DNA of 56,577 bases from a virus (IMGVR_UViG_3300046786_000614:1-56577), one strand, 5' to 3'. Shown: positions 128 to 17,216, numbered from the stretch's first letter. The notes: generated by a model not told the origin, from the sequence alone. A program made the numbers and translations.

Positions 128-152
128 CACTCCTACCAACAAGGAGAAACCT

Positions 153-1821: not shown

Positions 1822-1827
1822 TCGCGG

Positions 1828-2616: not shown

Positions 2617-2617
2617 C

Positions 2618-2824: not shown

Positions 2825-3048
2825 TGTTCGACACCAGGGTACCCGAGAGCATGGCCAGCCTACCTGGCCGCAAGGTAACTCACTGGGAGGTAGAGCCGCC
2901 GCGCGCCAATGCGGCGCCAGTAGCCGAGCGCGAGTGCAAGGTATGCCACATTACCTACCCGCTGTTCTGCTTTGAGAAGAACCAGGGCAAGGGCTACGTG
3001 TGGTACAAGCGCACCTGCAAGCTGTGCCAGAGGAGAGGGAAGAAATGA
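2824..3048 (+). CDS. Small zinc-finger protein
   Basis: CKVC...CKLC; stop/start overlaps on both sides. Confidence 0.6.
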   Translation: MFDTRVPESMASLPGRKVTHWEVEPPRANAAPVAERECKVCHITYPLFCFEKNQGKGYVWYKRTCKLCQRRGKK

Positions 3049-3566: not shown

Positions 3567-3877
3567 TCCATGGCAAACCAAGAACCAAAGAGGAGCAGCG
3601 GTGGATTGACGCCTGCCTACGGCTTGGGTGTACCGTTTGCCGCATGCAAGGGCGAGGGTACGTCCCATGCGAGTACCACCACATGCTATCTGGCAGCCGA
3701 CGAATCGGGCACCTTTTTGGTTTTGGTCTGTGCTCACCAGGACATCACAGAAATTGCCCAAAGGGCTATGGCCAAGTTGGACGCCATCCTGACAAGGCAG
3801 AATTCGAACGCCGCTACGGCACCGAGGAATTCCTCCTCGAGCTGACCCAGCGGGTAGTGGAGAGCGTGAAACCATGA
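3563..3877 (+). CDS. Ref/DUF968-like HNH-related nuclease
   Basis: LGCTVC...EYHH...LC..GHH...FERRYGTEEFLL pattern. Confidence 0.7.
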   Translation: MIHGKPRTKEEQRWIDACLRLGCTVCRMQGRGYVPCEYHHMLSGSRRIGHLFGFGLCSPGHHRNCPKGYGQVGRHPDKAEFERRYGTEEFLLELTQRVVESVKP

Positions 3878-3889
3878 AGGGAAACAGAG

Positions 3890-4345
3890 ATGCCTAGATG
3901 GTCACCGTTTGAGCCTTATTTCTGGTCTTTGGTGGAGAAAGGCGACGGGTGCTGGACATGGAAAAGCGGCACCGATGGCAATGGTTATGCGCGCGTTTGG
4001 TACAAAGGCAAGCGCCAACCTGCCAGCCGAGTGGCCTGCGAGCTTTCAGGAAAGCCGCGACCAGGTGCACTGCACGCATGCCATACCTGCGACAACAAAC
4101 TGTGCGTCAACCCCGCCCACATTTTCTGGGGAACCGCCAAAGACAACATGCAGGACTGGACCAAAAAAGGCAAAAACAGGTTGGCCAACGACCGCACCCT
4201 GTGGGGCATGGGCAAGCACTGGGCCACCAATCCGGCCGCGAAGCGCGCCATGAGCGCTCAAATGAGAATGGAATTGTCGACCGGCCAACGCATTGTCCTG
4301 CGCGGCGAAAAAGGAAGAATTCTAGGAACGAGGAGAGCGCCATGA
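3890..4345 (+). CDS. HNH homing endonuclease
   Basis: FWSLVEKGDGCWTW...GY...ACHTCDNKLCVNPAHIFWGTAKDNMQD. Confidence 0.88.
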   Translation: MPRWSPFEPYFWSLVEKGDGCWTWKSGTDGNGYARVWYKGKRQPASRVACELSGKPRPGALHACHTCDNKLCVNPAHIFWGTAKDNMQDWTKKGKNRLANDRTLWGMGKHWATNPAAKRAMSAQMRMELSTGQRIVLRGEKGRILGTRRAP

Positions 4346-5277
4346 AAGTGTTATTGACCGGAGGAACGGGATATCTTTCTCAAGCCCTCACACGCCACCT
4401 GCTGCAGCTACCCGAGACCACCGGCATTCGTATCTACAGCCGTGGCGAGGCAGCCCAAGCCAGGATGGCCAGCGAGATTCACGATGATCGCATGCGCTAC
4501 CTGGTAGGCGATGTGAGGGACCGAGACCGCCTCGAGCGCGCCATGGAAGGGTGCGATGCGGTAATCCACACTGCCGCCCTGAAGCGGGTAGAGGTAGGCG
4601 AGCGCGACCCCAGCGAGATGATTAAGACCAACGTGCTGGGCACCATGAACGCGATCGAGGCAGCTCGAGCAGCCGGCGTAACCCGCATGGTGGTCCTGAG
4701 CAGCGACAAGGCATGCGCCCCGCTCAACGCCTACGGCGCCAGCAAGCTGATGGCTGAGAAGCTGGCGCTGGCTGCAGGCCAGGAGAGCGCCAAGGGCCCG
4801 ACGATCGCGGTGACCCGGTACGGCAACGTGGCTGGATCCACCGGCAGCGTCATCCCCATCTGGCGCGAAGCCATCGCCCACGGCCGCAAGCTGCGCCTGA
4901 CCAGCCCGAGCGCCTCCCGCTTCTGGATGACCGTAGAAGAGGCCTGCGACCTGGTCATTGCTGCGCTGCATTACCGCTACGCCGGGTGTCTGCTGGTACC
5001 CAGCCTGCCGGCCTACCACCTGCGCGACCTGATCGAAGCCATGTGCCCGCGCGCGCTGGACTACGAGATCACCGGATTGGGCCTGGGTGAGAAGGAGCAT
5101 GAGGAAATGATCAGCGAGCACGAGGCTCGAGGGTTTACCCGAATTGCGGGCATGTGGGTGAAAGGGGCAAAATCCCCAGACGGTTTTACCGAGGAGCGCC
5201 AGGGGGCCATGAGCAGTGCGCACGCCAGGCGGATGACGGTGCAGGAACTGATTGAGGCTCTGAGGAGGGTCAAGTGA
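4342..5277 (+). CDS. pseB: UDP-GlcNAc 4,6-dehydratase, PseB/CapD-like
   Basis: LLTGGTG, IYSRGE, GDVRD, IHTAALK, KTNVLG, LSSDKA, YGASK, RYGNVAGSTGSVIP, RFWMT. Confidence 0.88.
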   Translation: MKVLLTGGTGYLSQALTRHLLQLPETTGIRIYSRGEAAQARMASEIHDDRMRYLVGDVRDRDRLERAMEGCDAVIHTAALKRVEVGERDPSEMIKTNVLGTMNAIEAARAAGVTRMVVLSSDKACAPLNAYGASKLMAEKLALAAGQESAKGPTIAVTRYGNVAGSTGSVIPIWREAIAHGRKLRLTSPSASRFWMTVEEACDLVIAALHYRYAGCLLVPSLPAYHLRDLIEAMCPRALDYEITGLGLGEKEHEEMISEHEARGFTRIAGMWVKGAKSPDGFTEERQGAMSSAHARRMTVQELIEALRRVK

Positions 5278-5885
5278 CAAACGGATTCCAGGTGGTGCGC
5301 GACTTTGAGCAGGCGCTGTGCGACTACACCGGCGCCCGGTTTGCGGTGACCACCAACAGCTGCACCATGGCGATCTTGCTGGCGGTGGCCTACCATGTGC
5401 AAAAAAACCCGACCGAGCTCCACGTAGTGAACTGCCCCAAGCGCACGTACGTGGGCGTGCCCATGGCCATCCACCATGCCGGCGCGGAGATCGCCTTCAC
5501 CGACAAGCCATGGGTGGGCGAATACCGGCTGGACCCGCTGCCCGTCTGGGACAGCGCCAGGCTACTCACCAGCGGCATGTACCGCACCGGCACCATGCAG
5601 TGCCTGTCCTTCCACTGGACCAAAACGCTTGGCATTCAGCAGGGTGGTGCCATCCTCCATGACAGCCCGACCGCGGACAAGTGGCTGCGCAAGGCGCGGT
5701 TTGACGGCAGGACCGAAGGGGTACCGGCCGACCAGGATGACATCGACATGATCGGCTGGCACGCCTACATGAGCCCGGAGGTGGCTGCCGCCGGCCTGGT
5801 GCGCATGATGCACCTGCCCAAGGACAACGAACCCCTGCCGAACAGCGCCTACCCTGACTGCAGCCAACTGAGGGCCTTCAAATGA
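5274..5885 (+). CDS. Shortened DegT/PseC-like PLP sugar aminotransferase
   Basis: FEQALCDYTGARFAVTTNSCTMA, WDSA, CLSFHWTK (PLP lysine), GGAI; only 203 aa; GTG start overlaps the pseB stop. Confidence 0.8.
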   Translation: MTNGFQVVRDFEQALCDYTGARFAVTTNSCTMAILLAVAYHVQKNPTELHVVNCPKRTYVGVPMAIHHAGAEIAFTDKPWVGEYRLDPLPVWDSARLLTSGMYRTGTMQCLSFHWTKTLGIQQGGAILHDSPTADKWLRKARFDGRTEGVPADQDDIDMIGWHAYMSPEVAAAGLVRMMHLPKDNEPLPNSAYPDCSQLRAFK

Positions 5886-6226
5886 GCGGACAACAAGACG
5901 CACTGCTGGCCATCGGCCGGGATCCAGCCAAGCCGCAATGGGTAAAGATGACGATCCGGCGCGATGACGGCCAGGAAATGTGGGTGAGTCTGGACCCCGA
6001 CAATGCGGTCGACGTGGCCGAGGCGATTGCCAAGGAGGCCTACCACGCCAAGTACGGCAAGCCCAGCCCGCTGGTGCACACCCTTAAGGATGAGATCCTG
6101 GCCAAGAAGCGGGAGAAGCTGATCAACCGCTGCAAGCTGGTGGCCCCCCAGCTACTCGAGCGCGGCCGCAGCAACGAGTACATCGTGACCGAGCTTATCG
6201 ACATTGTGCTGGCCGAGGTGACCTGA
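5882..6226 (+). CDS. Hypothetical protein
   Basis: ATGA overlap; phage codon usage. Confidence 0.65.
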   Translation: MSGQQDALLAIGRDPAKPQWVKMTIRRDDGQEMWVSLDPDNAVDVAEAIAKEAYHAKYGKPSPLVHTLKDEILAKKREKLINRCKLVAPQLLERGRSNEYIVTELIDIVLAEVT

Positions 6227-6435
6227 TGGCCTGCGACATCTGCGGGAAAGCGACCACCGACCTGGAGGCGCTGCTTGAGCGGTACCAGGCGCCCGACATC
6301 AAGATGATCTGTCCGGACTGCCTGAAGACCGTCAACAAGCAGCATAGCGACCTGCTGACGGTGGTGCTCAAAATGCGCGACGGGTGGCTGAACGAGTGGA
6401 TTCGCAACATGAAGCTAAGGCTGACCGGAAAATGA
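6226..6435 (+). CDS. Small zinc-binding hypothetical protein
   Basis: CDIC...CPDC; overlapping starts and stops. Confidence 0.6.
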   Translation: MACDICGKATTDLEALLERYQAPDIKMICPDCLKTVNKQHSDLLTVVLKMRDGWLNEWIRNMKLRLTGK

Positions 6436-7016
6436 GCAAGCGCTACTGCATCATTCCCGCGCGCGGCGGCAGCCGGCGGATACCCGGCAAGAACAAGCGG
6501 CTGTTCGAAGGCAAGCCCATCATCTGCCGGGCGATCGACACCGCCAAGGAATCCGGCCTGTTCAAGGAAATCATTGTATCCACCGACGATGACGGGATCC
6601 GCAATCTGGCGGCGCACCGCGGCTGCCGCATCCACCTGCGCGGCGAGTATGAGGCGCAAGACCAGGTAGGCACCCAGGAGGTGGCCCGCAAGGTGCTGCT
6701 GGACTTCAAGGTGCCGGCCCGTAACATGGTGTGCTGCCTGTACCCCACCACCCCACTGCTGTACCCGGATGACCTGAGAGCGGGCGTCAAGCTGCTCGAG
6801 CGCGCCGGCCCGGTGTGGGCCATGAGCGTGGGCGCCGAGCCGCTACGGGATGCCGGCTGCTTCTACTGGGGCAGGGCTGAAGAGTGGTACAAGCAGACCC
6901 CGCTGATCGGCCCCAACACCAGGATGGTGGTCCTGCCGGAGAGCAGGGTATGCGACATCAACACCGAGGAGGACTGGCAGGAAGCCCTCCGCAAATACAA
7001 GGAACTGACCACGTGA
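6432..7016 (+). CDS. pseF: CMP-nonulosonic acid synthetase (cytidylyltransferase), PseF/NeuA-like
   Basis: IIPARGGSRRIPGKN, GKPII, IIVSTDD, CCLYPTTPLL, DAGCFYWG, DINTEEDW. Confidence 0.9.
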   Translation: MSKRYCIIPARGGSRRIPGKNKRLFEGKPIICRAIDTAKESGLFKEIIVSTDDDGIRNLAAHRGCRIHLRGEYEAQDQVGTQEVARKVLLDFKVPARNMVCCLYPTTPLLYPDDLRAGVKLLERAGPVWAMSVGAEPLRDAGCFYWGRAEEWYKQTPLIGPNTRMVVLPESRVCDINTEEDWQEALRKYKELTT

Positions 7017-7621
7017 ACACCATCGAATTCTGGGCCGGCAAAGACGGTGACGAGTACCACCAGCGCCAGACGGTGACCGACAAGGCCAACGTCAACTACT
7101 TCGCCCGGGCCCTGAACAACTACGACCCGGCCAGCGCGATCGAGCTCGGCTGTGGTGACGGCAGGAACATGAAGGCCCTGCTGCAGCTGCACCCCCTGAT
7201 GCGCATCACCGGCGTCGACGTCAATGACAGCGCGCTGCAAAAGGCGGCTGAGTACGGCAGGCCGCTGAAGCTGAGCGCCGACAGCCCCACCATGGGTCTG
7301 CACCTGGGCAACGCCGACCTGACCTACACCAAAGGCCTGCTGATCCACATTCCCCCGGAACAGCTGCCGCAGGTCTACGACAACCTGTACCACCTGAGCA
7401 ACCACCTGATCATGATCGGCGAGTACTACGCGCCCCAGCGCACGGAGATCCTGTACCGCGGCCAGACCGGCAAGCTTTGGAAAGCCGACTTCGCCGGCGA
7501 GATGATGGACAGGTACCCGGACCTGAAGCTGATCGACTACGGCTTCCACTACCACCGGGATTTCTACCCGCAGGACGATATCAGCTGGTTCCTGATGAGC
7601 AAGGCAACGGGCAAGATCTAA
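7013..7621 (+). CDS. Pseudaminic acid biosynthesis-associated SAM methyltransferase
   Basis: EFWAG..GDEY, ELGCGDG (SAM site), KGLLIHI, EYYAP, YRGQTGKLWKADFAGEMMDRYPDLKLIDYGF, DDISWFL. Confidence 0.85.
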   Translation: MNTIEFWAGKDGDEYHQRQTVTDKANVNYFARALNNYDPASAIELGCGDGRNMKALLQLHPLMRITGVDVNDSALQKAAEYGRPLKLSADSPTMGLHLGNADLTYTKGLLIHIPPEQLPQVYDNLYHLSNHLIMIGEYYAPQRTEILYRGQTGKLWKADFAGEMMDRYPDLKLIDYGFHYHRDFYPQDDISWFLMSKATGKI

Positions 7622-7719
7622 ACCCCTGGGATTCCATACAGGTTAGGGTTTTCACTGGTTGCTATGCAAGAAATTATTTGCAATGATTCGGGGCCGTAGT
7701 AACCAACCCGGGAAACACC

Positions 7720-7989
7720 ATGACCCTTGCTCAATTGCTTCAATCGCTTGCTAGCACGAACAACGGCTATCTGTTTGCTCCGACTGCCGCCGAGCTTGCT
7801 TGTGCGCGCGCCAATCCTGCAGCCGTGCGCCTTGTCGGCACAATGATCTATCCGCTTGATTGGCACGCCAAGCACGGCGCCGCTTGGAACGCTATGCGCC
7901 CGGCCCCTGCTCCGCGCTCGCTGCGCGATGACTTTGACTATGAGGGTGCAATTTTGACCCGACAGGAAAACGCGGGTTTTTACGATTAA
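7720..7989 (+). CDS. Hypothetical protein
   Basis: First ORF after an AT-rich intergenic gap. Confidence 0.55.
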   Translation: MTLAQLLQSLASTNNGYLFAPTAAELACARANPAAVRLVGTMIYPLDWHAKHGAAWNAMRPAPAPRSLRDDFDYEGAILTRQENAGFYD

Positions 7990-7998
7990 AGGCGCTGC

Positions 7999-8247
7999 AT
8001 GACCAACCCCACCACCTACTGGCTACGCTGCACCAAGTGCAACCAGGAGCTACTGCACGGCCTGCAGGAGCCCGAGCGCCCAGCCTACAGCTGCACAGCC
8101 AGGGACATGAGGATGGGATGCAAGCGCCGCGGGTGCGATCCGCAACTGGTAACCAAGACTGATGAGTTGCCGCTGGAAGACCAGATCCGGCTGGGCCTGG
8201 TAGACGAGGAGGAAGCATGGAAAAAGCTAAGGCAGAAAGCAGCATGA
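7999..8247 (+). CDS. Hypothetical Cys-rich protein
   Basis: CTKC...C...C...C; packed ORF. Confidence 0.55.
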   Translation: MTNPTTYWLRCTKCNQELLHGLQEPERPAYSCTARDMRMGCKRRGCDPQLVTKTDELPLEDQIRLGLVDEEEAWKKLRQKAA

Positions 8248-8480
8248 CCCACGAATTGGACCCGCAGTGCCCGGAGACTGTGCGACCTGAAAATGTCGGT
8301 TGCGAGGCCAGCTTTATTCCGCTCCTGTTCTCGGCCGGGTTTGGCTCCGACGCCAAAATGGAGCAAGACCTAGCCCGATTCTTCGATGGTCCCCTCCCCG
8401 AAGTCGGCGATGCGGTCGAGCTTGTCTGCTACGAGCGCACCCCTGGCAATGTAATGATGAAGTGGCGGGTGCGGAAATGA
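8244..8480 (+). CDS. Hypothetical protein
   Basis: ATGA overlaps on both sides. Confidence 0.55.
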   Translation: MTHELDPQCPETVRPENVGCEASFIPLLFSAGFGSDAKMEQDLARFFDGPLPEVGDAVELVCYERTPGNVMMKWRVRK

Positions 8481-9100
8481 CCCGAGAACTGATCGCCCAG
8501 GCGGAGGCGCCTGATTGGTTGCACCTAAAGCCATTTGGCTACGCTCCCGGCAACTACATGGGCGGATGTCAGGCGTGCAAGACCATGATGTACAACGTCG
8601 ACAAGCGCGCCATCACTTGCCGCCCGTGCGCGGAGAAAGCGTTTGCCGCAGCCATGCAACCCGCCGAGGCGGTGGCTCATATTGTTTCGTCTGGACGCGC
8701 GGGTATGCCATTACTCCAATGGATGAGCGCAGACCATTCATTCCGCGCGCCAATTGGCACAAAACTCTACGCCCATCCAGACCCGCAAATCGCCGCGCTG
8801 GAAGCCGACCTTGTAACCGCGCAGCAAAACGAAAGCATCGAGCAAGGGATGCGGAAGGAATGCGAGGCCGCCATCGCCCAACTCGCTGCCGACCTCGCCG
8901 CCGCGCAGGCAGAACGCGACGACGCCAACAAAGAATGCGGCTATCGCATCAAGGAGCGCGACGAAGCAAGGGCCGCGCTTGCGGAGGCGGTGGCGGAATT
9001 TGAACAAGCATTGTCTGTTGCCTGCATGTTGGCGGAAATTTCTGATAGCAAATACGAAAGCCTGATGATCTATTTTCGCAAAGCCAGAGGTGCCGCATGA
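8477..9100 (+). CDS. Hypothetical protein (Zn-ribbon plus coiled coil)
   Basis: GYAPGNY..C..C...DKRAITCRPC followed by a heptad-rich tail. Confidence 0.6.
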   Translation: MTRELIAQAEAPDWLHLKPFGYAPGNYMGGCQACKTMMYNVDKRAITCRPCAEKAFAAAMQPAEAVAHIVSSGRAGMPLLQWMSADHSFRAPIGTKLYAHPDPQIAALEADLVTAQQNESIEQGMRKECEAAIAQLAADLAAAQAERDDANKECGYRIKERDEARAALAEAVAEFEQALSVACMLAEISDSKYESLMIYFRKARGAA

Positions 9101-9232
9101 TCTACACCTATCAACGCATGTCAGGCCAAGGGCTGCGGTGGGACATTTTCCAAAGCACGCGGAAGATTGCTATTTGCTGGTCTGAGGACGATGCGAAATT
9201 GATTTGCAAGGCGCTCAATGGAGGTGCCGCCC

Positions 9233-9562
9233 ATGACTGACATCAACCACGCCGAACTGTCTAAGCAACTGGCGCTGGCGTTGGGCTATTTCCCGGAAAG
9301 TGTGCGGGTCGCGCCGTCAACGTATTGCGCTGTATACCGAAATTGCTACGGACAAGAGCGGTGGGAGGAACTCGACTACCGCGACCCGACCGTATGCCTG
9401 CCGCTGATCGAGTGGCTTGGTAGTGAGCATCGAATCTTCTTCTGGTGGTGCGGACCTACGGATCAATTTGGACCGCGCTGGTCCTCCAGCAGGTGCGACA
9501 TTTCAGACACCCTCGCAGAAGCGGTGGCTCGGGCGGTTATTGCGGTGAAGGGAGGTGGGTGA
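9233..9562 (+). CDS. Hypothetical phage protein (NinX-like ending)
   Basis: GGAGG RBS; ...PLIEWL...AEAVARAVIAVK. Confidence 0.55.
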   Translation: MTDINHAELSKQLALALGYFPESVRVAPSTYCAVYRNCYGQERWEELDYRDPTVCLPLIEWLGSEHRIFFWWCGPTDQFGPRWSSSRCDISDTLAEAVARAVIAVKGGG

Positions 9563-9680
9563 TGGGTAGCGGACCGATTGACAATTCAGCGGGCTATAAG
9601 ATCGTATGGGTAAACGGCGCGCCCTACGTTCTGCGTTTCTACTTTCCGAACAACGGACCGTACTACCAAGGGACCGCGTC

Positions 9681-10022
9681 ATGACCGCCACCCACCTATT
9701 CCGAGGCAACGACAAGGGCGAAATCCTCGACGCATCCGGCAAGGTTGTGGGGCGGATTGTGCCGGTTGAATTGCCTACGCAAACCTCTGATGCCATCCGC
9801 GAAGCGTCCGACAGTTACCCATACAAACCGTTTCCAGACGGGGAAAAATTGGGCTACATGCAGGTTTCAATTATTCACCGGACCATGCTATCCGCCGCCC
9901 CCACCGACTGGTCAGGCGTGGCGGTGCAGGTGCCGGAGAGGAGAACGCCTATGCGCTTTGATCGCGGGTGCGACGATCAGGGATGGAACGCAGTACTCGA
10001 CGCGATTGGGGTGAAGGGATGA
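9681..10022 (+). CDS. Hypothetical phage protein
   Basis: VPVE...MLSAAP...GWNAVLDAI motifs typical of small early phage proteins. Confidence 0.55.
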   Translation: MTATHLFRGNDKGEILDASGKVVGRIVPVELPTQTSDAIREASDSYPYKPFPDGEKLGYMQVSIIHRTMLSAAPTDWSGVAVQVPERRTPMRFDRGCDDQGWNAVLDAIGVKG

Positions 10023-11112
10023 TCCGTTGCAAAACTTGTGTAATGCCGGATACCCGGCCCGACACCCCGTTCTACGACGGCGAGTGTGCTGCTTGCATAA
10101 GCTTCAAAGCCCGCCAGCAGATCACCCCAGAGGAGTGGATCCGGCGAGAGCAAGCGCTCAAAGACCTGCTGGACAGGCATGATGGCCGGGTGCTGGTGCC
10201 AAGCTCGGGCGGCAAGGACAGCCACTACCAGGTAAAGCGCATGCTGGACCTGGGCGCCGAGGTAACGGTGGTCACGGCAACCACCTGCCACCTGACCGAG
10301 ATCGGCCGCAAGAACATCGACAACCTGGCGCGCTACGCCCACCAGACGATTGAGGTGACGCCGAACAAGGAAGTGCGCAAGAAGTTGAACCGCGCCGGCC
10401 TCGAGAAGGTGGGCGACATCAGCTGGCCTGAGCACGTCGCGATCTTCACGCTTCCATTCAACGTGGCGGCCCAGACCGGCCACACCCTGATGATGTACGG
10501 CGAGAACCCCCAGCAGGAGTACGGCGGCCCGCCCGGCAAGGACCAGGCCCTGCAGCTGACCCGCCGCTGGGTAACTGAGTTCGGTGGCCAGCTGGGCCTG
10601 CGGCCGGCAGACCTGGTTGGATACGACGGCATTACCTGGCGCAACATGGAGCCTTACTGCATATCTGAGGAGGTGGGGAGCCTTGGTATTGAGGCCCACT
10701 TCCTGGGCGCCTATGAGTGGTGGGACAGCCGGGCAAATTGGACGGTGGCCGGCGAGATGGGGATGGAATTTAACGAGTATAGAGTGCCAACCAGAGCTAA
10801 CTGGTGGTACGCCGAGAACCTGGACAACGTCCAGACCGGGCTGCACGACCACATGATGTACCGCAAGTACGGCTTTGGCCGCGGCTGTCAGCAGATCAGC
10901 GTCGACGTGCGGAACGGGTTCGCGCGCCAGTCCGCGCTGGAGTGGGTAGAATCTTGGGACGGCATCTTTCCATGGAGATACTGCAAGGTGCCCTTCGGTG
11001 AGATGCTGCGCCAGGCCGGCATCAACCCAGACGAAGCATGGAAGTGGATAGACCAGTTCACCAACTGGGACCTGTTCCATGGCGAAGTGGTCGACGGACG
11101 CCCCATTCTCAA

Positions 11113-11116
<4 letters not shown>
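10019..11116 (+). CDS. N-acetyl sugar amidotransferase (WbuX/PseA/WbpG-like, PP-loop)
   Basis: RCKTCVMPDTRPD...C..C, SGGKDSHYQ, YGENPQQEYGG, ENLDN, HDHMMYRKYGFGR. Confidence 0.88.
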
Positions 11117-11822
<706 letters not shown>

Positions 11823-11826
<4 letters not shown>

Positions 11827-12137
11827 GCCTATTTCAATGCGAACGCTGTGGCTGCTGCGAGAACACCGCGCTGGCCTGCCAAGGGTGTGATGGGTACGCC
11901 GTCACTTTCTTTGACTGGACCGGCATCGAGGACCGCAAGGGTAAGAAGCTGTGCAGTGCGTGCGCGCCCACTGAATATGCAGATGGCGGACTGACTCAGT
12001 ACGGCAAGTGGCACGGTCAGTTCCCGCGTGTGTTCCTGCCAATGGGCATGTTCCATACCAACCACGAAGGCAACCTCGCGCACAAGGAAACCGGCGACAC
12101 GGACTTCCGTAAGTACGCAATAGAGGCCCCACAATGA
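11823..12137 (+). CDS. Cys-rich hypothetical phage protein
   Basis: MSLFQCERCGCCENTAL...LCSAC...GKWHGQF. Confidence 0.65.
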
Positions 12138-12598
12138 AACTGTACAACGTCAAGGAATGCCAGGGCGAGGCCATCGAGATCCTGTGGCAGCTGCTGTGCG
12201 AGCGCCCCGACTACGCCAACATCAGCCACGATGGCAAGCCCGACCGCAACAAGCACGTGAGCTTTGTGATGGCGCACCCGTACCGGGAGTGGTGCCTGAT
12301 CATGACCGACGTGGAGGATTCCGGCCCGAACAAGTGGCACCGTTGGGTGGGCGCGATCTACATCACCCACCAGAACGAGCTTGGCATTGCCATCCTGGAG
12401 CGGTGCCAGCGCAAAGGCTACGCCCGCCAGGCGATCGACCTGATGATGCAGCGCCACCCGCGCGATTACTACCTGGCCAACGTCGCGCCGGGCAACCACC
12501 CCAGCCACCGGCTGTGGGAAAGCTTCGAGAACCACGCCATTTGCCAAGTCACCTACCGCATAACCCGAGGAGAAGACCATGGAAGCCCCAACCCCTAA
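12134..12598 (+). CDS. GNAT N-acetyltransferase (candidate PseH equivalent)
   Basis: ELGIAIL..CQRKGYA (acetyl-CoA motif A), ANVAPGNHPSHRLW. Confidence 0.8.
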   Translation: MKLYNVKECQGEAIEILWQLLCERPDYANISHDGKPDRNKHVSFVMAHPYREWCLIMTDVEDSGPNKWHRWVGAIYITHQNELGIAILERCQRKGYARQAIDLMMQRHPRDYYLANVAPGNHPSHRLWESFENHAICQVTYRITRGEDHGSPNP

Positions 12599-13022
12599 GA
12601 CCCCCCACCCGCTGGCGCTGGAAGCCGCATCGACCCACGGCAAGGCTTTGTGCGCCGCGATCTGGGCGCTACGCCACAAGCTCAACGACATGACGGTCGA
12701 GATCCCGGTCGAGGAGATGGAGAAGTTCAGGAAGAGCCTGGACTACCACGAGCAGCAGGCAGTGCTCAGGTTCACACCTACCCACCGCGGCTTGTACATC
12801 AGCATGGTCGACGCCACCAGCAGCGCAGCCATTGTGCAAAGCGAAAGCGACGAGGATGACCAGCGCCAGAAGGACAAGCGCGCCGGCATCAAAGCCATGA
12901 TCGAGAGCATCCCGCAGCTGATTGCCGAGCACCGCGGCATGCTGGCCACAGGAGCGGACAGCGAGACCCTGGTGCGGGAGATCCATGAAGCAGCCCTTGC
13001 GGCTTACCAGGCGGCCCGCTGA
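12579..13022 (+). CDS. Hypothetical protein
   Basis: GAGGAG RBS; phage codon usage. Confidence 0.65.
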   Translation: MEAPTPKTPHPLALEAASTHGKALCAAIWALRHKLNDMTVEIPVEEMEKFRKSLDYHEQQAVLRFTPTHRGLYISMVDATSSAAIVQSESDEDDQRQKDKRAGIKAMIESIPQLIAEHRGMLATGADSETLVREIHEAALAAYQAAR

Positions 13023-13492
13023 TGACCACGATCGCATGGGACGGGCATACCCTGGCGGCCGACCGTGGCAGCTGGTCAGGCAACATGCAGACGGAAGTTT
13101 GCAAACTGTTCGTGTTCAAGGACGGAGAGATCGGCCGCAAAGGATTCCCGCCTGGCGGCTGGGCCAGCACAGGAGACTGGGCATTCAATCATGCTTTTGC
13201 GCAGTGGTTGAGGGACGATAGTGTTTCATTCCCGCTGCTGTGCAAGGACGCCAGCCCAGACCATAGCATTGGCATCTGGGTGACAAACGACGGGCAGGTT
13301 TTTCGAGCGCACGTACGAGGCATCCTGACCCCCGTCATGGGCAAAATCGCAGCAGGCGGCGCCGGGCAAATGTTTGCCCTTGGCGTGCTGGCCATGGGAG
13401 GCACTGCTGAGCGCGCCATCAGCCTTGCCGCGGTGCACACCGATGCTGCCGCATTTGGTGTCGACACATGGAGCCCATCATGCTCCCGATGA
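13022..13492 (+). CDS. Ntn-hydrolase (HslV/proteasome beta-like) phage protein
   Basis: N-terminal MTTIAWDG.TLAAD; A.G.G..FALG...G.TAERAI..A...D. Confidence 0.7.
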   Translation: MTTIAWDGHTLAADRGSWSGNMQTEVCKLFVFKDGEIGRKGFPPGGWASTGDWAFNHAFAQWLRDDSVSFPLLCKDASPDHSIGIWVTNDGQVFRAHVRGILTPVMGKIAAGGAGQMFALGVLAMGGTAERAISLAAVHTDAAAFGVDTWSPSCSR

Positions 13493-14481
13493 TCGTGGCT
13501 GAGCTGTCAGCCAACGCAGCCGTCGGCAACCTCGACATGGCCCTGCGCACGGTGGAGGCGGCCAAGAAAGCGGGAGCGGACGCAATCAAGCTGCAGACCT
13601 GGACACCGGGCACCATGGCGATCGACGGCAACTACCGCATCCAGCATGGGGCCTGGAAGGGCAAGCAGCTGGCCAGCCTGTACCAGGAGGCCCATACCCC
13701 ATGGGAGTGGCACAAGCCACTGTTTGAGCGCGCGCGCGAGCTCGGCATGCTGGCCTTCTCCACGCCCTTCGACAAGCGTGCCGTGGACTTTCTGCAAATA
13801 TTGGATTGTAGTCACTACAAGGTGGCCAGCTTCGAGATCACCGACCTGCCGCTGATCCGCTACATCGCCAGCACTGGCAAGCCGATCATCATCAGCACCG
13901 GCATGGCAACCAGCGAAGAGATCCGCCATGCGGTAGAGGCGGCACGCTTCAGGGCCAACCTGGACGTCACCCTGCTCAAGTGCACCAGCGCCTACCCAGC
14001 GCCGCCGGAAGAGGCCAACCTGCGTTCCATGACCCAGCCCGCCTGGTACCTCAAGACCGCCTTCGGATTGTCCGACCATACAGTGACCGATGGTGCGGCA
14101 TGCGTGGCAGCGCACATGGGCGCCACCATGATCGAGAAGCACTTCACCCTGAGCAGGCTGAACGGCGGGCCGGATGCAAACTTCAGCCTCGAGCCGCCAG
14201 CCTTCGCTCGGTTTGTGGCCAATGTCAGGGCAGCCGCGGTGGCCGGCGGACGCATTGCCTATGGACCCAGCGAGTCGGAGAGCACCGAACTGCGCCGCGG
14301 TGCGTACTGGGCAACCGACCTGCCAGCAGGCCACGTGGTGACCGAGCAGGACCTAGTGACCGCAAGGCCGGAGACAGCCCTGTCAATCAGGGAGTTTGAA
14401 ACCTGCGTGGCTGGCAGGGAACTGACGCATCCTGTGAAGGCCAAGTCGGCCATTCACCTTGGGGTTGTGGCTTCCGTTTGA
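13468..14481 (+). CDS. pseI: Nonulosonic acid synthase, PseI/NeuB-like, with C-terminal SAF domain
   Basis: IVAELSAN, GADAIKLQT, AHTPWEWH, FSTPFD, KVASFE, STGMA, LLKCTSAYP, GLSDHT, IEKHFT, GGPD..FSLEP; start could be 13480 or 13489. Confidence 0.92.
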   Translation: MEPIMLPMIVAELSANAAVGNLDMALRTVEAAKKAGADAIKLQTWTPGTMAIDGNYRIQHGAWKGKQLASLYQEAHTPWEWHKPLFERARELGMLAFSTPFDKRAVDFLQILDCSHYKVASFEITDLPLIRYIASTGKPIIISTGMATSEEIRHAVEAARFRANLDVTLLKCTSAYPAPPEEANLRSMTQPAWYLKTAFGLSDHTVTDGAACVAAHMGATMIEKHFTLSRLNGGPDANFSLEPPAFARFVANVRAAAVAGGRIAYGPSESESTELRRGAYWATDLPAGHVVTEQDLVTARPETALSIREFETCVAGRELTHPVKAKSAIHLGVVASV

Positions 14482-14541
14482 TTGAATGTTTGATTAGAAT
14501 CAAACGCCGTTCCCCGCTTTGATTAAATCAAAGGAATCAAA
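14477..14541. repeat. TTTGATT/AATCAAA repeat cluster
   Basis: Three TTTGATT and three AATCAAA copies in 65 nt, forming two palindromes just before the TerS start. Confidence 0.8.
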
Positions 14542-15050
14542 TGCCGAGAGGTGGCTTTCGACCTGGCGCTGGGCGCAAGCGTATTGTTGGGGAAGCTGGT
14601 GCGGCGCAGATAAAGCCGAAGAAGCCGGCCAGTGAGGCCGGAAAGAAGCGTGCTGAACGGCTGAATGCGGATCGAAGGGCAAGCCCGGGTGCCGGGGCCA
14701 TTGGTGCGGCGACAATAAAGCGCGCCAAGCCACCGCCCGGGACTGTAATAGACCAGATCGTTCACGAGCTCAAGCGGCCAGACGAGACCCCCCTGCAGTA
14801 CATGCTCAGGATCATGCGGGATCCGCTCCAGCCCAACGAGCGCCGCGATATGATGGCCATCAAAGCTGCCAGTTACCTACACCCCAGGCTGACCGGCGTT
14901 GCATTTGAAATGGCGCCCAGGCCGGAGATGCAGATTGGCGATTACAAGAAGCCAGAGCTTGAAGGCGAGCAGAGCAACAACCTCGAGATCGCGCGCCGGA
15001 TAGCCTTTGCCCTTGCAATGGGGGCAGCAAAGGCCAAGGAAGCGGCCTAG
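14541..15050 (+). CDS. Terminase small subunit (putative)
   Basis: MPRGGFRPGAGRK N-terminus, TPLQYML..MRD...A..AA.YLHPRL; position at the start of the packaging module. Confidence 0.7.
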   Translation: MPRGGFRPGAGRKRIVGEAGAAQIKPKKPASEAGKKRAERLNADRRASPGAGAIGAATIKRAKPPPGTVIDQIVHELKRPDETPLQYMLRIMRDPLQPNERRDMMAIKAASYLHPRLTGVAFEMAPRPEMQIGDYKKPELEGEQSNNLEIARRIAFALAMGAAKAKEAA

Positions 15051-15079
15051 TTGCCCAACCCGGTGGGCGGTGCTACTAT
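15051..15079 (+). promoter_or_regulatory. sigma70-like promoter
   Basis: TTGCCC-17 nt-TACTAT in the intergenic gap. Confidence 0.55.
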
Positions 15080-15108
15080 CGCGCGCATTCACCCGCCGGG
15101 AGTAGCAC

Positions 15109-15417
15109 ATGGCACTTGACCAGCCCATGGTCTCGATGAAGCGGTCCAAAGAGGACAAGCGCGCCGACAAGCTGTCGCATGCCCCAATGGAAGCGATGGA
15201 GGCCGACTACCCGTATGGTCTGTGCATCCACATGGACGGTGACGAGATGGACAAGCTCGACATCAAGACTATGCCGAAGGTGGGCGACGAGATGATCCTG
15301 GTGTGCAAGTGCAAGGTAACGCGCACCGCGCAGAGCGCCAGCGAGTACACCAAGGGTGAAGACACCCGATCCATTGATCTCCAGATAACCGAAATCGGTT
15401 GGGAGGAAGAAGCATGA
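15109..15417 (+). CDS. Capsid staple/cement protein (epsilon15 gp10-like)
   Basis: DYPYGLCI...KL...P.VG.E...RSIDLQITEI pattern. Confidence 0.7.
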   Translation: MALDQPMVSMKRSKEDKRADKLSHAPMEAMEADYPYGLCIHMDGDEMDKLDIKTMPKVGDEMILVCKCKVTRTAQSASEYTKGEDTRSIDLQITEIGWEEEA

Positions 15418-15776
15418 GACCCATCGGCGGATTTGTAAGTCCGGACGAATACCCGGCCTGGCCTGACTACATCAACACGGTGCTGCCCACCAGCGCTGGC
15501 AGCGTGGCGACTTTCGACTACCCAGCAGCCAGCACCGTGGCCTCGAGCGCGCCGCAATACTGCGCGGTGGTGAGTCAGAACGCAAATGTGTGGTTCAACC
15601 CGACCTCGACCGGCGCCAACGTGCCCACCACCCCATCGCTTACCGGCCAGGCTGGCCAGACCCTGATTTCCAATGCGGTGCCATTCCGCACCCAGATACC
15701 GGCTGGCAGCACCGGCGGATCGGTGGCATTCCCCACCACCGCGGGCGGTGTCAGCATCCGATTCTGGAGAAAGTAG
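15414..15776 (+). CDS. Ser/Thr-rich putative virion decoration protein
   Basis: ATGA overlap; small beta-rich S/T/A/G/P composition; head module. Confidence 0.55.
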   Translation: MRPIGGFVSPDEYPAWPDYINTVLPTSAGSVATFDYPAASTVASSAPQYCAVVSQNANVWFNPTSTGANVPTTPSLTGQAGQTLISNAVPFRTQIPAGSTGGSVAFPTTAGGVSIRFWRK

Positions 15777-15881
15777 TAAGGCCAGGCCGCCGGCGCCGCG
15801 CCCGGCGGCCTGTTGAGGATGAGGAATGCGCGCATGTGCTACGGGCAACCGCCCGGATCTTGATCCTCGAAAGGAATCATC

Positions 15882-16343
15882 ATGCCAGATACCCTGTTCA
15901 ACGTACCGCTCTACCGCGAGCGGATCCGCACTTCCATCCACGGCAGCAGGCTCGCGCTGGATGATGACAACATGCTGGTCGGCCCTGCGGGCTTGAAGCG
16001 CCGCATCCAGACCATCAGCACCACGGTGCCCACCAGTGCCTACCCGCACGGGGTGACCCGCATTGCGGTGACCGGATCGAGCCAAGGGCCCACGCAGCAC
16101 ACCCTGGCAGCGCCCATCCCCGGCATCGAGGCCACCTTCATGCTGGCCAGCACCAGCACCGGCTCGGTTCAGTTCCTGACCACCGCTGCCGGCGCATCGA
16201 TCATCCCGGCCACGGTCGGCACCACGTTCGGTGTGCTGAACCTGATCGGCCCGGCGGGATCGGTAACCCTGGTAGGCGTGACCACCGCGCAGTGGGCAGT
16301 CAAGTCGGCAGTCGGTGCCTACACCTTCACCACCAGTACCTAA
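15882..16343 (+). CDS. Thr-rich putative virion decoration protein
   Basis: AAGGA RBS; about 25% Ser+Thr by hand count; C-terminal SVTLVGVTTAQWAV. Confidence 0.6.
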   Translation: MPDTLFNVPLYRERIRTSIHGSRLALDDDNMLVGPAGLKRRIQTISTTVPTSAYPHGVTRIAVTGSSQGPTQHTLAAPIPGIEATFMLASTSTGSVQFLTTAAGASIIPATVGTTFGVLNLIGPAGSVTLVGVTTAQWAVKSAVGAYTFTTST

Positions 16344-16376
16344 GCGGCCTCGCGCCGCGCTTCTGAGGAGGAGCGT

Positions 16377-17216
16377 ATGAAGATAGCAATCCTGGGCTCG
16401 GCCCCGAGCAGCATGGGCCTTGCCCCGTTCGGCGACCCGTCATGGCAGATCTGGGGTTGCAGCCCAGGCCTGTACGCCAACGCGCCGCGGGTGGACCAAT
16501 GGTTTGAACTGCACCGGTGGGAGCCGCCGGTGATCGGCAAGCCAGCCCAGCAGGTGCCTTGGTTCTCGCCGGAATATGTGGCCTGGATGGCGCAGCAGAA
16601 GAAGGTCTGGATGTACGCCGCGGTGCCTGAGATCCCGAACAGCGACGTGTTCCCGACCGAGGAACTCTGCCGCAAGTTTGGCAATTTCTTCATGACCAGC
16701 AGCATCGCATGGATGATGGCCATGGCGATCGACCAGATCATCCTCGAGCGCGATACCCGCACCACGCCGGCGGCGCCGGGCGACTTCGACTCCATTGGCC
16801 TGTTTGGCGTCGACATGGCAGCCAGTGAGGAATACGGGTACCAGCGCGCCGGGTGCCAGTACTTCATCCAGATGTGCATCAACCTGGGCATCGAGGTCCG
16901 GATTCCTCCTGAAAGCGACCTGCTGCGCCCCATGCCCATGTACGGCATCTGGGAGTCCAGCCACTTTGCCATCAAGATGACGGCTCGCAAGCGCGAATTG
17001 ACCACCAGGATGCAGCAGCATCAGGCGCAAGCGGCCGAGCACAGCAACCAGGCCTTGTTCCTGCGTGGCGCGCTGGACGATCTGGAATACATGATCCAGA
17101 CCTGGCATGAAGGCAAGGACGCGATACCCACCCATGTGGATATCTGGGCGCGCAGTCCGTACTTGAAAACGATGGATCCGCCGCCGAACATGCCGTTGAT
17201 CAATGAGCGCTCTTGA
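16377..17216 (+). CDS. Putative nonulosonic acid transferase (Maf/sialyltransferase-like Rossmann fold)
   Basis: KIAILGSAPSS N-terminal strand-loop, WGC, WFELH, SSIAWMMAMAI helix, IGLFGVDM; C-terminal coiled coil. Confidence 0.5.
   Translation: MKIAILGSAPSSMGLAPFGDPSWQIWGCSPGLYANAPRVDQWFELHRWEPPVIGKPAQQVPWFSPEYVAWMAQQKKVWMYAAVPEIPNSDVFPTEELCRKFGNFFMTSSIAWMMAMAIDQIILERDTRTTPAAPGDFDSIGLFGVDMAASEEYGYQRAGCQYFIQMCINLGIEVRIPPESDLLRPMPMYGIWESSHFAIKMTARKRELTTRMQQHQAQAAEHSNQALFLRGALDDLEYMIQTWHEGKDAIPTHVDIWARSPYLKTMDPPPNMPLINERS

Follow-up and report, generated by a model that had tools for sequence, protein, structure and literature searches.

A conserved pseudaminic acid-type biosynthesis module with a candidate CMP-nonulosonate transferase in uncultured podophages

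The window analysed here, the whole 56,577-nt stretch of IMG/VR record IMGVR_UViG_3300046786_000614, represents one complete virus (CheckV completeness 100%). Among the products of this 56.6-kb record are TerL, portal, capsid and tail proteins, and an 876-aa virion protein displays 35% identity to the epsilon15-type podophages phiV10, SPN1S and YeP5. The source is an uncultured freshwater epsilon15-like podophage and, since its structural genes are epsilon15-like, its host is probably Gram-negative. The phage also encodes a tailspike of the pectate-lyase type. No integrase was found in the genome. Searching 185,579 species genomes returned six hits, all in metagenome-assembled genomes (five on contigs of 2.9–8.2 kb, the sixth on a contig of 49 kb), and no prophage copies were seen among these genomes. 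The lineage is seemingly virulent, with a lytic lifestyle.

From an HNH gene to TerL, 13 of the 24 gene junctions overlap by 1–25 nt, mostly as ATGA or GTGA, and the last ORF runs 14 nt past the start of TerL (Table 1). This bears out the sequence-only reading that the genes are translationally coupled and run into the terminase module. That reading had also placed eight genes of a pseudaminic acid (Pse)-type pathway in a podophage genome; with HMM families and the complete record at hand, all eight were confirmed on the plus strand at the starts first assigned to them.

Table 1. Features of the Pse-type module and adjoining genes (positions in the window)
Feature	Position	Strand	Evidence
PseB-like UDP-GlcNAc 4,6-dehydratase (inverting type), 311 aa	4342..5277	+	PF02719 3.2e-74; TIGR03589 269.6 bits (cut-off 407.75)
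Mini-DegT, PseC-like PLP enzyme, 203 aa	5274..5885	+	PF01041 DegT 2.9e-18; TIGR03588 PseC 43.8 bits (cut-off 423.5)
Conserved 114-aa protein, core module member	5882..6226	+	28/29 complete modules
PseF-like CMP-pseudaminic acid synthetase (cytidylyltransferase), 194 aa	6432..7016	+	PF02348 4.1e-23; TIGR03584 169.3 bits (cut-off 205.7)
Pse-biosynthesis-associated SAM methyltransferase	7013..7621	+	TIGR03587 198.2 bits (exceeds cut-off 112)
Strain-specific insertion, five ORFans (7720, 7999, 8300, 9218, 9606)	7720..10022	+	GC 0.59, lower
WbuX/PseA-like N-acetyl sugar amidotransferase (acetamidino group)	10019..11116	+	TIGR03573 174.4 bits (cut-off 203.2)
WbuZ/HisF-like amidotransferase partner	11113..11826	+	PF00977 4.7e-48; TIGR03572 209.5 bits (cut-off 299.7)
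GNAT acetyltransferase, PseH-step candidate	12134..12598	+	PF00583 2e-5
PseI pseudaminic acid synthase	13468..14481	+	TIGR03586 366.8 bits (exceeds cut-off 340.25); NeuB PF03102 2.2e-78
Small terminase subunit, weak call	14541..15050	+	phrog_641 TerS E=0.025
Small Ser/Thr-rich protein, second candidate acceptor	15399..15776	+	22% S+T; family HMM 1.5e-17
Ser/Thr-rich 153-aa protein, phage spike/baseplate-adaptor-like beta fold, candidate acceptor	15882..16343	+	Foldseek; AF2 pLDDT 76
Candidate CMP-nonulosonate (pseudaminyl) transferase, GT42/CstII-like fold, 279 aa	16377..17216	+	AF2 pLDDT 84.8; Foldseek CstII
Large terminase subunit TerL, begins structural module	17203..18795	+	phrog_2 1.6e-29

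PseI and the Pse-associated methylase exceed curated equivalog cut-offs; for PseB, PseF, WbuX and WbuZ the best model is a Pse or Wbu model, each scoring under its cut-off. The best PDB relative of the PseB-like protein is the UDP-GlcNAc C6 dehydratase 2gn4 [2.1e-59], and the WbuX-like protein matches the N-acetyl sugar amidotransferase 8wex [1e-16]. Judged from these matches the Pse-type assignment is well supported, and the predicted activity of the operon, production of a CMP-Pse-type sugar, is very probable. The pathway is incomplete. PseG was absent from a six-frame search of the phage DNA, the PseH equivalog TIGR03585 gave no hit in the ORFs or in six frames, leaving the PseH role to the GNAT protein as a candidate, and no GATase (HisH/WbuY partner) was found anywhere in the genome.

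The PseC-like aminotransferase placed at 5274 stands as a DegT protein with a PLP-lysine motif, but in a truncated form. It matches only positions 25–98 and 170–212 of the 380-position PseC profile, aligns with ArnB residues 42–107 and 155–264, and lacks some 50 aa of the large domain together with the entire C-terminal domain. Among the 35 loci having this mini-DegT, 34 share a length of 202–210 aa and a common C-terminus, and the 35th carries a 115-aa ORF matching the first half only. All 20 aligned members retain the PLP-lysine motif along with the aspartate and, in the N-terminal part, the S-C-T motif, the invariant residues being S112, H114, K117, D93 and S29-C30. To our knowledge mini-DegT has no characterised precedent and, since PseG is missing as well, the pathway may need host enzymes.

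Searching IMG/VR with a PseI profile gave 370 positive contigs, the best 80 of which were analysed by tblastn. Within these 80 loci we found PseB (47), mini-DegT (36), PseF (37), the methylase (38), WbuX (44), WbuZ (48), GNAT (50), ORF 16377 (43), TerL (42) and portal (34). Gene order is identical across dozens of IMG/VR contigs of ~50 kb at 30–66% protein identity; the neighbourhood that the sequence-only reading had suggested looking for in viral metagenomes is thus a recurrent one. All eight enzymes, the PseB-like dehydratase included, occur in 29/29 complete modules, in each of which GNAT lies directly before PseI. The 114-aa protein, where present, always directly follows mini-DegT and gave no lead in Pfam, PHROG, PDB or ESM. 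The five ORFans of the insertion have homologs in 0 of the same best 80 loci and the insertion is partly skipped in related strains; we regard it as lying outside the conserved module.

That the genes were captured recently as a host island, or that the assembly is chimeric, had been named as the finding that would overturn this picture. In GC content the module does not stand out from the remaining genome, so that composition alone is no argument against such an origin, and small ORFs within the region vary by strain. Yet the reading is already contradicted by the synteny at this level of divergence, by PseI (the closest named bacterial proteins are 47–52% identical and none exceeds ~52%), and by bridging contigs from other runs, and we give it scarcely any credence. 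In run X3, from a second freshwater study, each of the 30 bins of 3000–19500 had contigs with 0 differences, and Pse/phage gene junctions are spanned by X3 record 14 (16411–17585) and X4 record 16 (3264–7597). A quick ML tree sets 12 bacterial rows apart from 45 of the 52 rows of the phage clade. The Pse module is an authentic trait of these phages, carried by them for a long time. We found no published description of such a phage module.

A candidate transferase had also been expected in the interval, and the last ORF, 16377–17216, is a plausible CMP-nonulosonate transferase on the basis of its CstII-like model and of profile hits. Foldseek comparison of the model with the PDB placed CstII at the top (prob 0.97–1.0, TM 0.36–0.47, E ~1e-3), and the GT42 CMP-Neu5Ac:lipooligosaccharide sialyltransferases (1ro7, 2drj, 2x61, 9c08) are its best structural and profile match. 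When a profile of 55 sequences was searched against ~177,000 PDB sequences, 8 of the 10 hits at E<=10 were GT42 sialyltransferases, at non-significant E-values (0.11–0.61), and GT42 was the only enzyme family reached. The profile alignment sets the TSS...GVDM motif against CstII residues ~131–162, and both proteins have the N-terminal G-x-x-P-S loop and the T-S...G-x-D motif. The ORF differs from CstII in that identity is ~10%, TM <0.5 and the E-values non-significant; it adds a long C-terminal coiled helix (residues 196–243), and its acceptor would probably be a protein rather than a glycolipid. The GT42 enzymes known to us act on lipooligosaccharide, not protein. Searches of Pfam and PHROG gave no significant family match, BFVD returned DUF115, MptE-like and GT29 proteins, and among ESM clusters with a Pfam assignment the nearest is MptE-like, which at a score of 0.79 serves as no more than a lead. 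Maf (PF01973) gave no hit in six frames, one of 24 members of the family reaches E=0.16, and hhalign of the family with a genuine phage Maf-like protein found no match. The assignment as a transferase is not strong; that the ORF specifies a CMP-nonulosonate transferase we consider likely.

ORF 16377 belongs to a large unannotated phage family which adjoins TerL, directly upstream, in 71/71 new loci, and Pse-pathway genes are present in 23 of the 24 loci with 10 kb of sequence upstream of the transferase gene. At least one relative, G002 (96% complete), keeps ORF 16377 and the ORF preceding it (15882) without any Pse gene, which indicates that the transferase is not strictly dependent on the phage's own pathway. 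Locus L111 has the transferase but neither a Pse gene nor a 15882-like ORF within 10 kb, and in the only cultured phage with a homolog, a Microcystis phage (32% identity), the gene lies upstream of the terminase genes with no Pse genes 9 kb either side. The cases of G002 and the Microcystis phage would suit an operon that only raises or rewires the host Pse supply, serving as a module of auxiliary metabolism. In that case ORF 16377 would not be a glycosyltransferase; it would be an enzyme whose fold is MptE/thiamin-pyrophosphokinase-like, or would help the small protein next to it to assemble. Thiamin pyrophosphokinases do match the model (prob 1.0, TM 0.33–0.41), a significant sequence-level family match is lacking, and in the absence of PseG host enzymes would be needed anyway. 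Such a role is nevertheless quite improbable: fold and profile searches independently rank GT42 first among the PDB sequences, nearly all of the loci with enough upstream sequence tie the ORF to Pse genes, and an activated yet untransferred sugar would have no evident use.

Upstream of the transferase gene, the TerS-candidate family (14541..15050) occurs in 29 of 43 loci and its C-terminus resembles the Sf6-type TerS of G002; it is a probable, weakly called small terminase subunit. The family of the second Ser/Thr-rich protein (15399..15776) is found in 26 of the 43 (mean S+T 23.5%). The 15882 protein contains 25% S+T against a proteome mean of 12%; its family ranges from 19 to 30%, with a Ser/Thr run at the C-terminal end in 20/22 members, and stands directly upstream of the transferase in 43/43 and in 59/64 loci. 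Top Foldseek matches of its model are the KP1 baseplate, CBA120 TSP4 N-terminal domains and the Pa223 capsid spike. Ser/Thr richness is non-specific evidence, since it is common in phage fibre proteins (21% in the tailspike of this phage).

The sequences themselves establish what the genes are, that they are conserved and syntenic, and which known folds the models resemble. The scheme that follows goes beyond this: in it we infer the activity of each enzyme, which sugar is made, that ORF 16377 acts as a transferase, what it modifies and that the modified protein sits in the virion. UDP-GlcNAc would be converted by the PseB-like dehydratase, aminated by the minimal DegT-type aminotransferase and N-acetylated by GNAT; release of UDP, the PseG step, might fall to the host or to some unrecognised protein. 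PseI would condense the product with PEP and PseF activate the sugar with CTP, while WbuX/WbuZ would turn an acetamido into an acetamidino group and the methylase add a methyl. The resulting CMP-activated pseudaminic acid derivative would serve the GT42/CstII-like enzyme encoded between TerS and TerL, which may O-glycosylate the Ser/Thr-rich small proteins just upstream (15882–16343, perhaps 15399–15776). The virion glycosylation proposed by the sequence-only reading is favoured by two features that were not available to it, the placement of the transferase between TerS and TerL and its nearly constant pairing with a spike-like Ser/Thr-rich protein; the acceptor is putative. The whole chain, from a phage-made CMP-Pse derivative to O-glycosylation of the phage's small virion proteins, is our preferred reading and is put forward tentatively, as a possibility that we rate a little below even.

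The main rival, though rather unlikely, is remodelling of the host envelope, in which the GT42-like enzyme would add the CMP-Pse derivative to LOS/LPS core, capsule or flagellin, masking receptors so as to exclude superinfection or keep progeny from being trapped on debris, and possibly altering motility. Epsilon15-type phages are classic O-antigen converters, the solved relatives by fold and profile are LOS sialyltransferases, and the pectate-lyase-type tailspike suggests a polysaccharide receptor. However, the lack of an integrase and of prophage copies argues against lysogenic conversion, the transferase sits inside the packaging module beside spike-like proteins, neither near an attachment site nor on its own transcription unit, and a GT2 search and Pfam scans of the ORFs detected no flippase, polymerase or further glycosyltransferase. 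PMC12053666 and PMC6586298 describe epaA/epaB and O-acetyltransferases in Acinetobacter prophages, whose genes modify the Pse of the capsule, and a review table (PMC6359870) lists pseI in Pacific Ocean viromes as 'motility augmentation'; both would be in keeping with envelope remodelling. These are precedents for Pse-related genes borne by phages, but they concern one or two tailoring genes in lysogens or fragments of single genes in viromes, whereas the lineage described here, to all appearance virulent, has a near-complete operon of eight enzymes and a transferase as a fixed feature.

Modification of phage DNA bases with a nonulosonate, as a guard against restriction, had been listed as a further alternative. 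The module does adjoin DNA-metabolism genes (DNA methyltransferase, nucleases, HNH) and the terminase. We consider it highly improbable, as no thymidylate-synthase-type hydroxymethylase was found in six frames, no DNA glycosyltransferase family was detected, and the Ser/Thr-rich partner protein would be left unexplained; we know of no precedent for nonulosonate on DNA.

In Campylobacter and Helicobacter PseB, C, H, G, I and F make CMP-pseudaminic acid, and PseA and Maf transferases act on flagellin. The phage module resembles this pathway in its implied chemistry, as judged from the cut-offs passed and the best models, and in the proposed Ser/Thr-rich target. It differs in being phage-encoded, in its reduced PseC, in the absence of PseG, in the assignment of the PseH role to GNAT, in a WbuZ without HisH, in the extra 114-aa protein, and in a transferase that is not a recognisable Maf. 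In mycobacteriophages, according to work by Freeman et al. of 2023, glycosyltransferase genes beside structural genes reportedly modify virion proteins. The gene placement is alike, but theirs use ordinary host nucleotide sugars, whereas this phage also carries genes for making an acidic sugar of nine carbons that is itself rare. Two glycosyltransferases are taken to suggest capsid glycosylation in the abstract of PMC11256854. Giant viruses encode both sugar-nucleotide biosynthesis and transferases for their own particle, according to the accessible sections of a review (PMC9614988), which report no nonulosonate pathway of such kind; those viruses infect eukaryotes with genomes of hundreds of kb, in contrast to a 56-kb tailed phage.

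Because the candidate acceptors resemble virion spikes or adaptors, glycosylation of these proteins would mean that progeny particles bear a nonulosonate of bacterial type, with its negative charge. Uncultured podophages of ~50–56 kb, forming a large clade, hold the operon as a stable part of the genome.

The window is a whole IMG/VR virus record of 56,577 bp. The genome is complete (100% by CheckV, with no terminal repeats called) and has a GC content of about 62% throughout; between 263 and about 48,000 nearly all genes are on the plus strand. Among its products are TerL, portal, major capsid and tail proteins and a pectate-lyase-type tailspike, and its 876-aa virion protein shows 34–36% identity, across 99% of its length, to those of epsilon15-type podophages such as phiV10, SPN1S and YeP5. 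Further relatives of this protein are found in Pelagibacter, Liberibacter and Burkholderia phages. The structural region also holds a 2,044-aa ORF without a family match, which may specify a giant internal or ejection protein. Two DNA methyltransferase genes are present; one product is of the N6/N4 type (PF01555), the other matches phrog_1008.

Host prediction gave no host: no tRNA was found in the window, no prophage copy was seen among 185,579 species genomes, and the six matches in that search all lie in MAGs (five contigs of 2.9–8.2 kb and one of 49 kb) whose host labels contradict one another. Lysogenic conversion of the epsilon15 type, which involves a temperate phage with an integrase and a prophage, has no counterpart here, since no tyrosine integrase (PF00589) was found in the window and no prophage form among the species genomes. 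The runs with most of the window sequence bear freshwater labels, and none of the listed runs containing it is an RNA run. A promoter and terminator scan of 1–19000 returned fewer sites than shuffled sequence did, so operon boundaries are not callable.

All eight pseudaminic acid (Pse) enzymes named in the sequence-only reading were recovered by HMM searches at the starts which it had assigned to them. PseI [TIGR03586; 366.8 bits, cut-off 340.25, profile positions 2–323 of 327] and the Pse-associated methylase [TIGR03587; 198.2 bits, cut-off 112.05, positions 7–203 of 204] exceed the curated NCBIfam equivalog thresholds; the NeuB_NnaB model gave only 236.6 bits with PseI. The PseB-like protein falls below its threshold [TIGR03589; 269.6 bits, cut-off 407.75], with its C-terminal 45 or so residues outside the alignment, yet this is still its top model (FnlA 183, LegB 64.8) and its best PDB match is a UDP-GlcNAc C6 dehydratase [2.1e-59, 2gn4]. 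PseF [TIGR03584; 169.3 bits, cut-off 205.7] is likewise below threshold, its model ranking first by far with KdsB models at 45 bits or less. Wbu models rank first for the WbuX-like [174.4 bits, cut-off 203.2] and WbuZ-like [209.5 bits, cut-off 299.7] proteins, the former having a solved relative in an N-acetyl sugar amidotransferase [1e-16, 8wex]. A HisH/WbuY-type glutaminase (GATase, PF00117) is absent from all six frames, leaving the WbuX/WbuY/WbuZ set of three incomplete.

A six-frame search for PseG (TIGR03590) at E≤1 was empty, and the 29 complete modules described below contain no conserved unknown of PseG size. Neither the PseH equivalog (TIGR03585), also sought in six frames, nor a PseH-like PDB entry was matched; a GNAT protein [PF00583, 2e-5] occupies the place expected for PseH in all 29 of these modules. 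The genes had been described as translationally coupled, and this is fair, since 13 of the 24 junctions from the HNH gene to TerL are overlaps, of 1–25 nt. The family matches as a whole speak well for the operon yielding a CMP-Pse-type sugar, provided that the reduced aminotransferase is active and that something substitutes for PseG.

The assignment of this aminotransferase to PseC held in part: the PLP-lysine motif is kept, but the protein has only 203 aa and is not a full two-domain PseC. It scores 43.8 bits against TIGR03588 (cut-off 423.5), matching only profile positions 25–98 and 170–212 of 380, and no further PseC piece was found in any frame of the window. This mini-DegT protein has about 202–210 aa and a common C-terminus in 34 of the 35 loci found by blastp, the longer ORF calls being artefacts of upstream start codons; the 35th locus has a 115-aa ORF which matches the first half only. 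Its identity of 50–61% over the 35 loci is the highest among the proteins of the Pse module. In all 20 aligned sequences S112, H114, K117, D93 and an N-terminal S-C-T motif are unchanged, K117 lying within S-x-H-x-x-K. The protein aligns with residues 42–107 and 155–264 of the 393 in ArnB, and K117 coincides with the catalytic lysine of ArnB S-F-H-x-x-K; the D93 position is presumably that of the aspartate contacting the pyridine nitrogen of PLP. Because of this motif invariance and partial ArnB alignment the mini-DegT is best described as a DegT-type PLP enzyme which has lost about 50 aa of the large domain and the entire C-terminal domain, yet remains strongly constrained. We infer that it still carries out PseC transamination, perhaps with its conserved 114-aa neighbour, and it is possibly a sugar aminotransferase of minimal size. 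We know of no characterised enzyme with such a reduced DegT form. The 114-aa protein is missing from only one of the 29 complete modules and always follows directly on the mini-DegT; Pfam, PHROG, PDB and ESM all gave no lead to it. That it might be a C-terminal domain split off from the aminotransferase was considered, and found no support.

The nearest matches of PseI are metagenomic, at 82–93% identity and then at 50–66% on contigs of 24–51 kb; named bacterial PseI proteins show 47–52% identity. A megablast search with the interval matched none of 50,697 phage records, and an IMG/VR scan with the single PseI protein gave no confirmed relatives. A PseI profile found relatives on 370 IMG/VR contigs, and the best 80 loci were compared by tblastn of the window proteins (Table). 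All eight enzyme families occur together in all 29 loci with a complete module. Gene order is constant, protein identity is 30–66%, and many of the contigs are 50–56 kb long. About 26 of the 80 loci belong to other viruses, including giant-virus bins, which have a NeuB/PseI-like gene alone or with PseB. The podophage clade with the module is found in freshwater and other environmental metagenomes.

Table. Features of the window and their recurrence. Counts out of 80 refer to the best 80 of 370 PseI-profile contigs; they include a few near-duplicates and double views of single contigs and are thus not counts of independent genomes. Counts out of 43 refer to loci compared for the order from PseI to TerL.
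Feature	Start or span	Loci	Remarks
DNA methyltransferase	263–1531		plus strand
HNH endonuclease	3890–4345		
PseB	4342	47/80	
Mini-DegT	5274–5885	36/80	
114-aa protein	5882–6226		
Small ORF	6226–6435		
PseF	6432	37/80	
Pse-associated methylase	7013	38/80	
ORFan block	7621–10022		about 2.4 kb, five ORFans, lower GC (0.59)
WbuX	10019	44/80	
WbuZ	11113	48/80	
GNAT	12134	50/80	
Small ORF	13022–13492		matches phrog_1040, annotated 'HslV-family peptidase'
PseI	13468		
TerS-like protein	14541–15050	29/43	
102-aa protein	15109–15417	8/80	PF21628 'Gp10-like, major coat protein-like' (9.9e-11)
Ser/Thr-rich protein, about 118 aa	15399–15776	26/43	mean S+T 23.5%
Ser/Thr-rich protein, about 156 aa	15882–16343	43/43; 27/80	mean S+T 27%
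Candidate transferase	16377–17216	43/80	279 aa
TerL	17203	42/80	
Portal		34/80	
2,044-aa ORF	30966–37100		
DNA methyltransferase	48604–49482		minus strand

A quick maximum-likelihood tree of PseI (99 rows, SH-aLRT support, midpoint root) places the window and 45 of 52 phage-clade rows on one side and all 12 bacterial rows on the opposite side, in a group of support 95 together with other-virus rows; the remaining seven phage-clade rows are unresolved near the base. Logan contigs from X3, a sequencing run of another freshwater study, cover 30 of 30 bins of 3000–19500 with 0–4 differences, mostly 0, and individual pieces span the junctions PseB/mini-DegT, WbuX/WbuZ and transferase/TerL. Strains at 90–95% identity in three other runs span the same junctions. 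Recent capture of a host island or an assembly chimera, either of which would have spoken against the sequence-only reading, is contradicted by the synteny, by the PseI tree and by the contigs from other runs which bridge the junctions. On this comparative evidence the Pse module is a stable trait of the phage and not a captured island.

It had also been noted that ordinary phage ORFs are interleaved with the Pse genes. They are, but as strain-variable insertions in a conserved enzyme operon, since they are missing from related strains or have no counterpart in the 80 loci. Both small ORFs of the Table are cleanly missing from 90–95% identical strains, with joints at 6222>6432 and 13019>13485, which marks them as indels within the operon. 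Related strains skip parts of the ORFan block between the Pse methylase and WbuX, and a counterpart of 7720–10022 is absent from all 80 related loci. The HNH endonuclease gene overlaps the start of PseB, and six other loci have HNH homologs elsewhere in the module; these differing positions suggest that the HNH genes are mobile homing endonucleases.

The candidate transferase, ORF 16377, had no match in Pfam, PHROG or PDB sequence searches. Its family is very large, with 1,801 clusters when cut at 90% identity; at 50% identity 4,442 representatives reach E≤1e-3 and 906 of these reach E≤1e-30, all of them unannotated. The closest clusters in the ESM Atlas are viral to about 90%. The AlphaFold2 model, for which 24 sequences were used (mean pLDDT 84.8), had as its top PDB fold match in Foldseek the GT42 alpha-2,3/8-sialyltransferase CstII (probability 0.97–1.0, 207–239 aligned columns, TM 0.36–0.47, E about 1e-3), followed by thiamin pyrophosphokinases; generic Rossmann-fold dehydrogenases gave TM of about 0.15. 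Among viral models a DUF115 protein, MptE-like proteins and a GT29 sialyltransferase appear below uncharacterised phage proteins. The 24-sequence profile gave only chance-level matches in the PDB. A broader profile of 55 sequences, drawn from the 50%-identity representatives, brought up 10 PDB sequences (E≤10). GT42 sialyltransferases make up eight of these, at E-values (0.11–0.61) which are not significant; these eight alignments cover some 30–40 residues and set a T-S-S...G-V-D-M block against CstII residues 131–162 or thereabouts. Residues G7, H46, S108, A117, G144, E152, Q156 and Y189 are invariant in the family. Neither fold nor profile is significant alone; nevertheless both point to one CMP-sugar transferase family, GT42.

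Assignment of ORF 16377 to the Maf/DUF115/MptE-like family (PF01973) is unsupported by sequence. A six-frame search at E≤10 was empty, Pfam found no family of note in 24 members (one reached PF01973 at E=0.16), and hhalign against a genuine phage PF01973 protein gave a probability of 0.5%; the direction is indicated only by the fold-level neighbours and by an ESM lead to an MptE-like cluster.

The solved relatives of the transferase work on lipooligosaccharide, and the phage probably recognises polysaccharide. For these two reasons remodelling of the host envelope with the phage-made sugar stays a serious rival to modification of the phage's own proteins, for which the genomic setting of the transferase has to be considered.

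A profile scan of IMG/VR with the ORF 16377 family found 133 contigs, and of the best 80, which were kept, 71 are new. TerL is present in all 71 and lies directly downstream of the transferase in every one except L092. Where the full 10 kb upstream is available, Pse-pathway genes precede the transferase in 22 of 24 loci; in L124 the WbuX and WbuZ matches lie between TerL and portal rather than upstream, and L111 has the transferase without Pse genes in that 10 kb. The virus record G002 (96% complete; 63%, 50% and 43% identity to the window in capsid, portal and TerL) has the transferase between a Sf6-type TerS and TerL, and no Pse genes anywhere in the record. Upstream of this TerS is a gene for an Ig-like (He_PIG) domain protein. 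Among 50,697 records of phages the sole cultured homolog belongs to Microcystis phage Mvi-Yong1342-1 [PP496355.1; L161:8902–9705], with 32% identity over 68%, and is directly upstream of TerS/TerL; Pse genes are absent from the 9 kb on each side. The annotation of this homolog as a 'type 11 methyltransferase' is probably wrong. Phages with the transferase and without Pse genes may draw on CMP-nonulosonates of the host.

A PseI-like gene occurs in an unrelated complete phage of 88 kb with direct terminal repeats (G009; loci L165 and L079). The same phage has a true member of PF01973 (Maf/MptE-like), 864 aa or more in length [139 bits], and possibly represents another nonulosonate system of phages, independent of the present one.

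The conserved order from PseI to TerL is TerS-like protein, the shorter and the longer Ser/Thr-rich proteins, transferase and TerL. In the window the small Gp10-like gene is situated between the TerS-like gene and the Ser/Thr-rich ones. In the second, independently retrieved set an ORF of the longer Ser/Thr-rich family (ORF 15882) ends no more than 400 nt from the transferase in 59 of the 64 loci with at least 700 nt of upstream sequence, and G002 has a member too (hhalign probability 99.3%); upstream of the homolog in the Microcystis phage lies a gene unrelated to both Ser/Thr-rich families. The ORF 15882 protein contains 25% Ser+Thr compared with 12% for the proteome, a richness which is common in phage fibres, and 20 of 22 aligned members end in a C-terminal run of at least two Ser/Thr. 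It has no PHROG family match. The first matches of its model (pLDDT 76) are phage particle proteins (probability 1.0, E 1e-4 to 4e-3), namely a baseplate protein of Klebsiella phage KP1, N-terminal domains of the CBA120 tailspike TSP4, the capsid spike of Pseudomonas phage Pa223 and an Acinetobacter phage tailspike. By these matches the protein resembles a small appendage of the virion, and among possible acceptors it is the obvious candidate. No longer, fused forms of the family were found, which is weak evidence, and a complex prediction for the two families scored 0.00 and counts neither way.

As to the use of the sugar, its attachment to DNA seems unlikely, and we favour modification of phage proteins because the transferase lies in the packaging module beside Ser/Thr-rich, spike-like partners and because neither an integrase nor a prophage copy was found. 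The sugar would be transferred late in infection onto the phage's own proteins. Support for virion glycosylation comes from gene position, from composition and from the fold of the neighbouring proteins. We might suggest, tentatively and with somewhat less than even confidence, that a globally distributed podophage clade makes its own acetamidino- and methyl-Pse, by a pathway which includes a 203-aa aminotransferase and a 114-aa core protein, and decorates small, spike-like proteins of its virions with this sugar through a GT42-like protein O-pseudaminyltransferase not recognised before.

In bacteria, nonulosonic acids at the surface serve as markers in motility, in immune evasion and in phage recognition, and glycosylation of virions is known in mycobacteriophages. 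A literature search, largely outside the subscription journals and without supplements, turned up no phage described as encoding both a Pse pathway and a transferase. Acinetobacter prophage genes tailor Pse in the capsule (PMC12053666, PMC6586298), pseI appears in a review table among genes of Pacific Ocean viromes, with the reading "motility augmentation" (PMC6359870), and another review treats the glycans of giant viruses (PMC9614988). Pseudaminyltransferases are little known. Since knowledge of cognate NulO transferases is scarce, as one paper puts it (PMC5420450), a new pseudaminyltransferase would be welcome, and the 203-aa DegT-type enzyme would be of interest to enzymology and to the chemoenzymatic synthesis of Pse glycoconjugates.

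The system belongs to virus-encoded glycosylation machinery and brings to it three components that are new, namely the GT42-like family, the mini-DegT and the conserved 114-aa protein. If the proposal is true, these would be the first particles of a bacterial virus known to carry a virus-made nonulosonic acid, virus-encoded glycosylation, so far known from mycobacteriophages and giant viruses, would come to include an acidic sugar of nine carbons in tailed phages of the ordinary kind, and a great many hypothetical phage proteins, all of one family, would gain a function.
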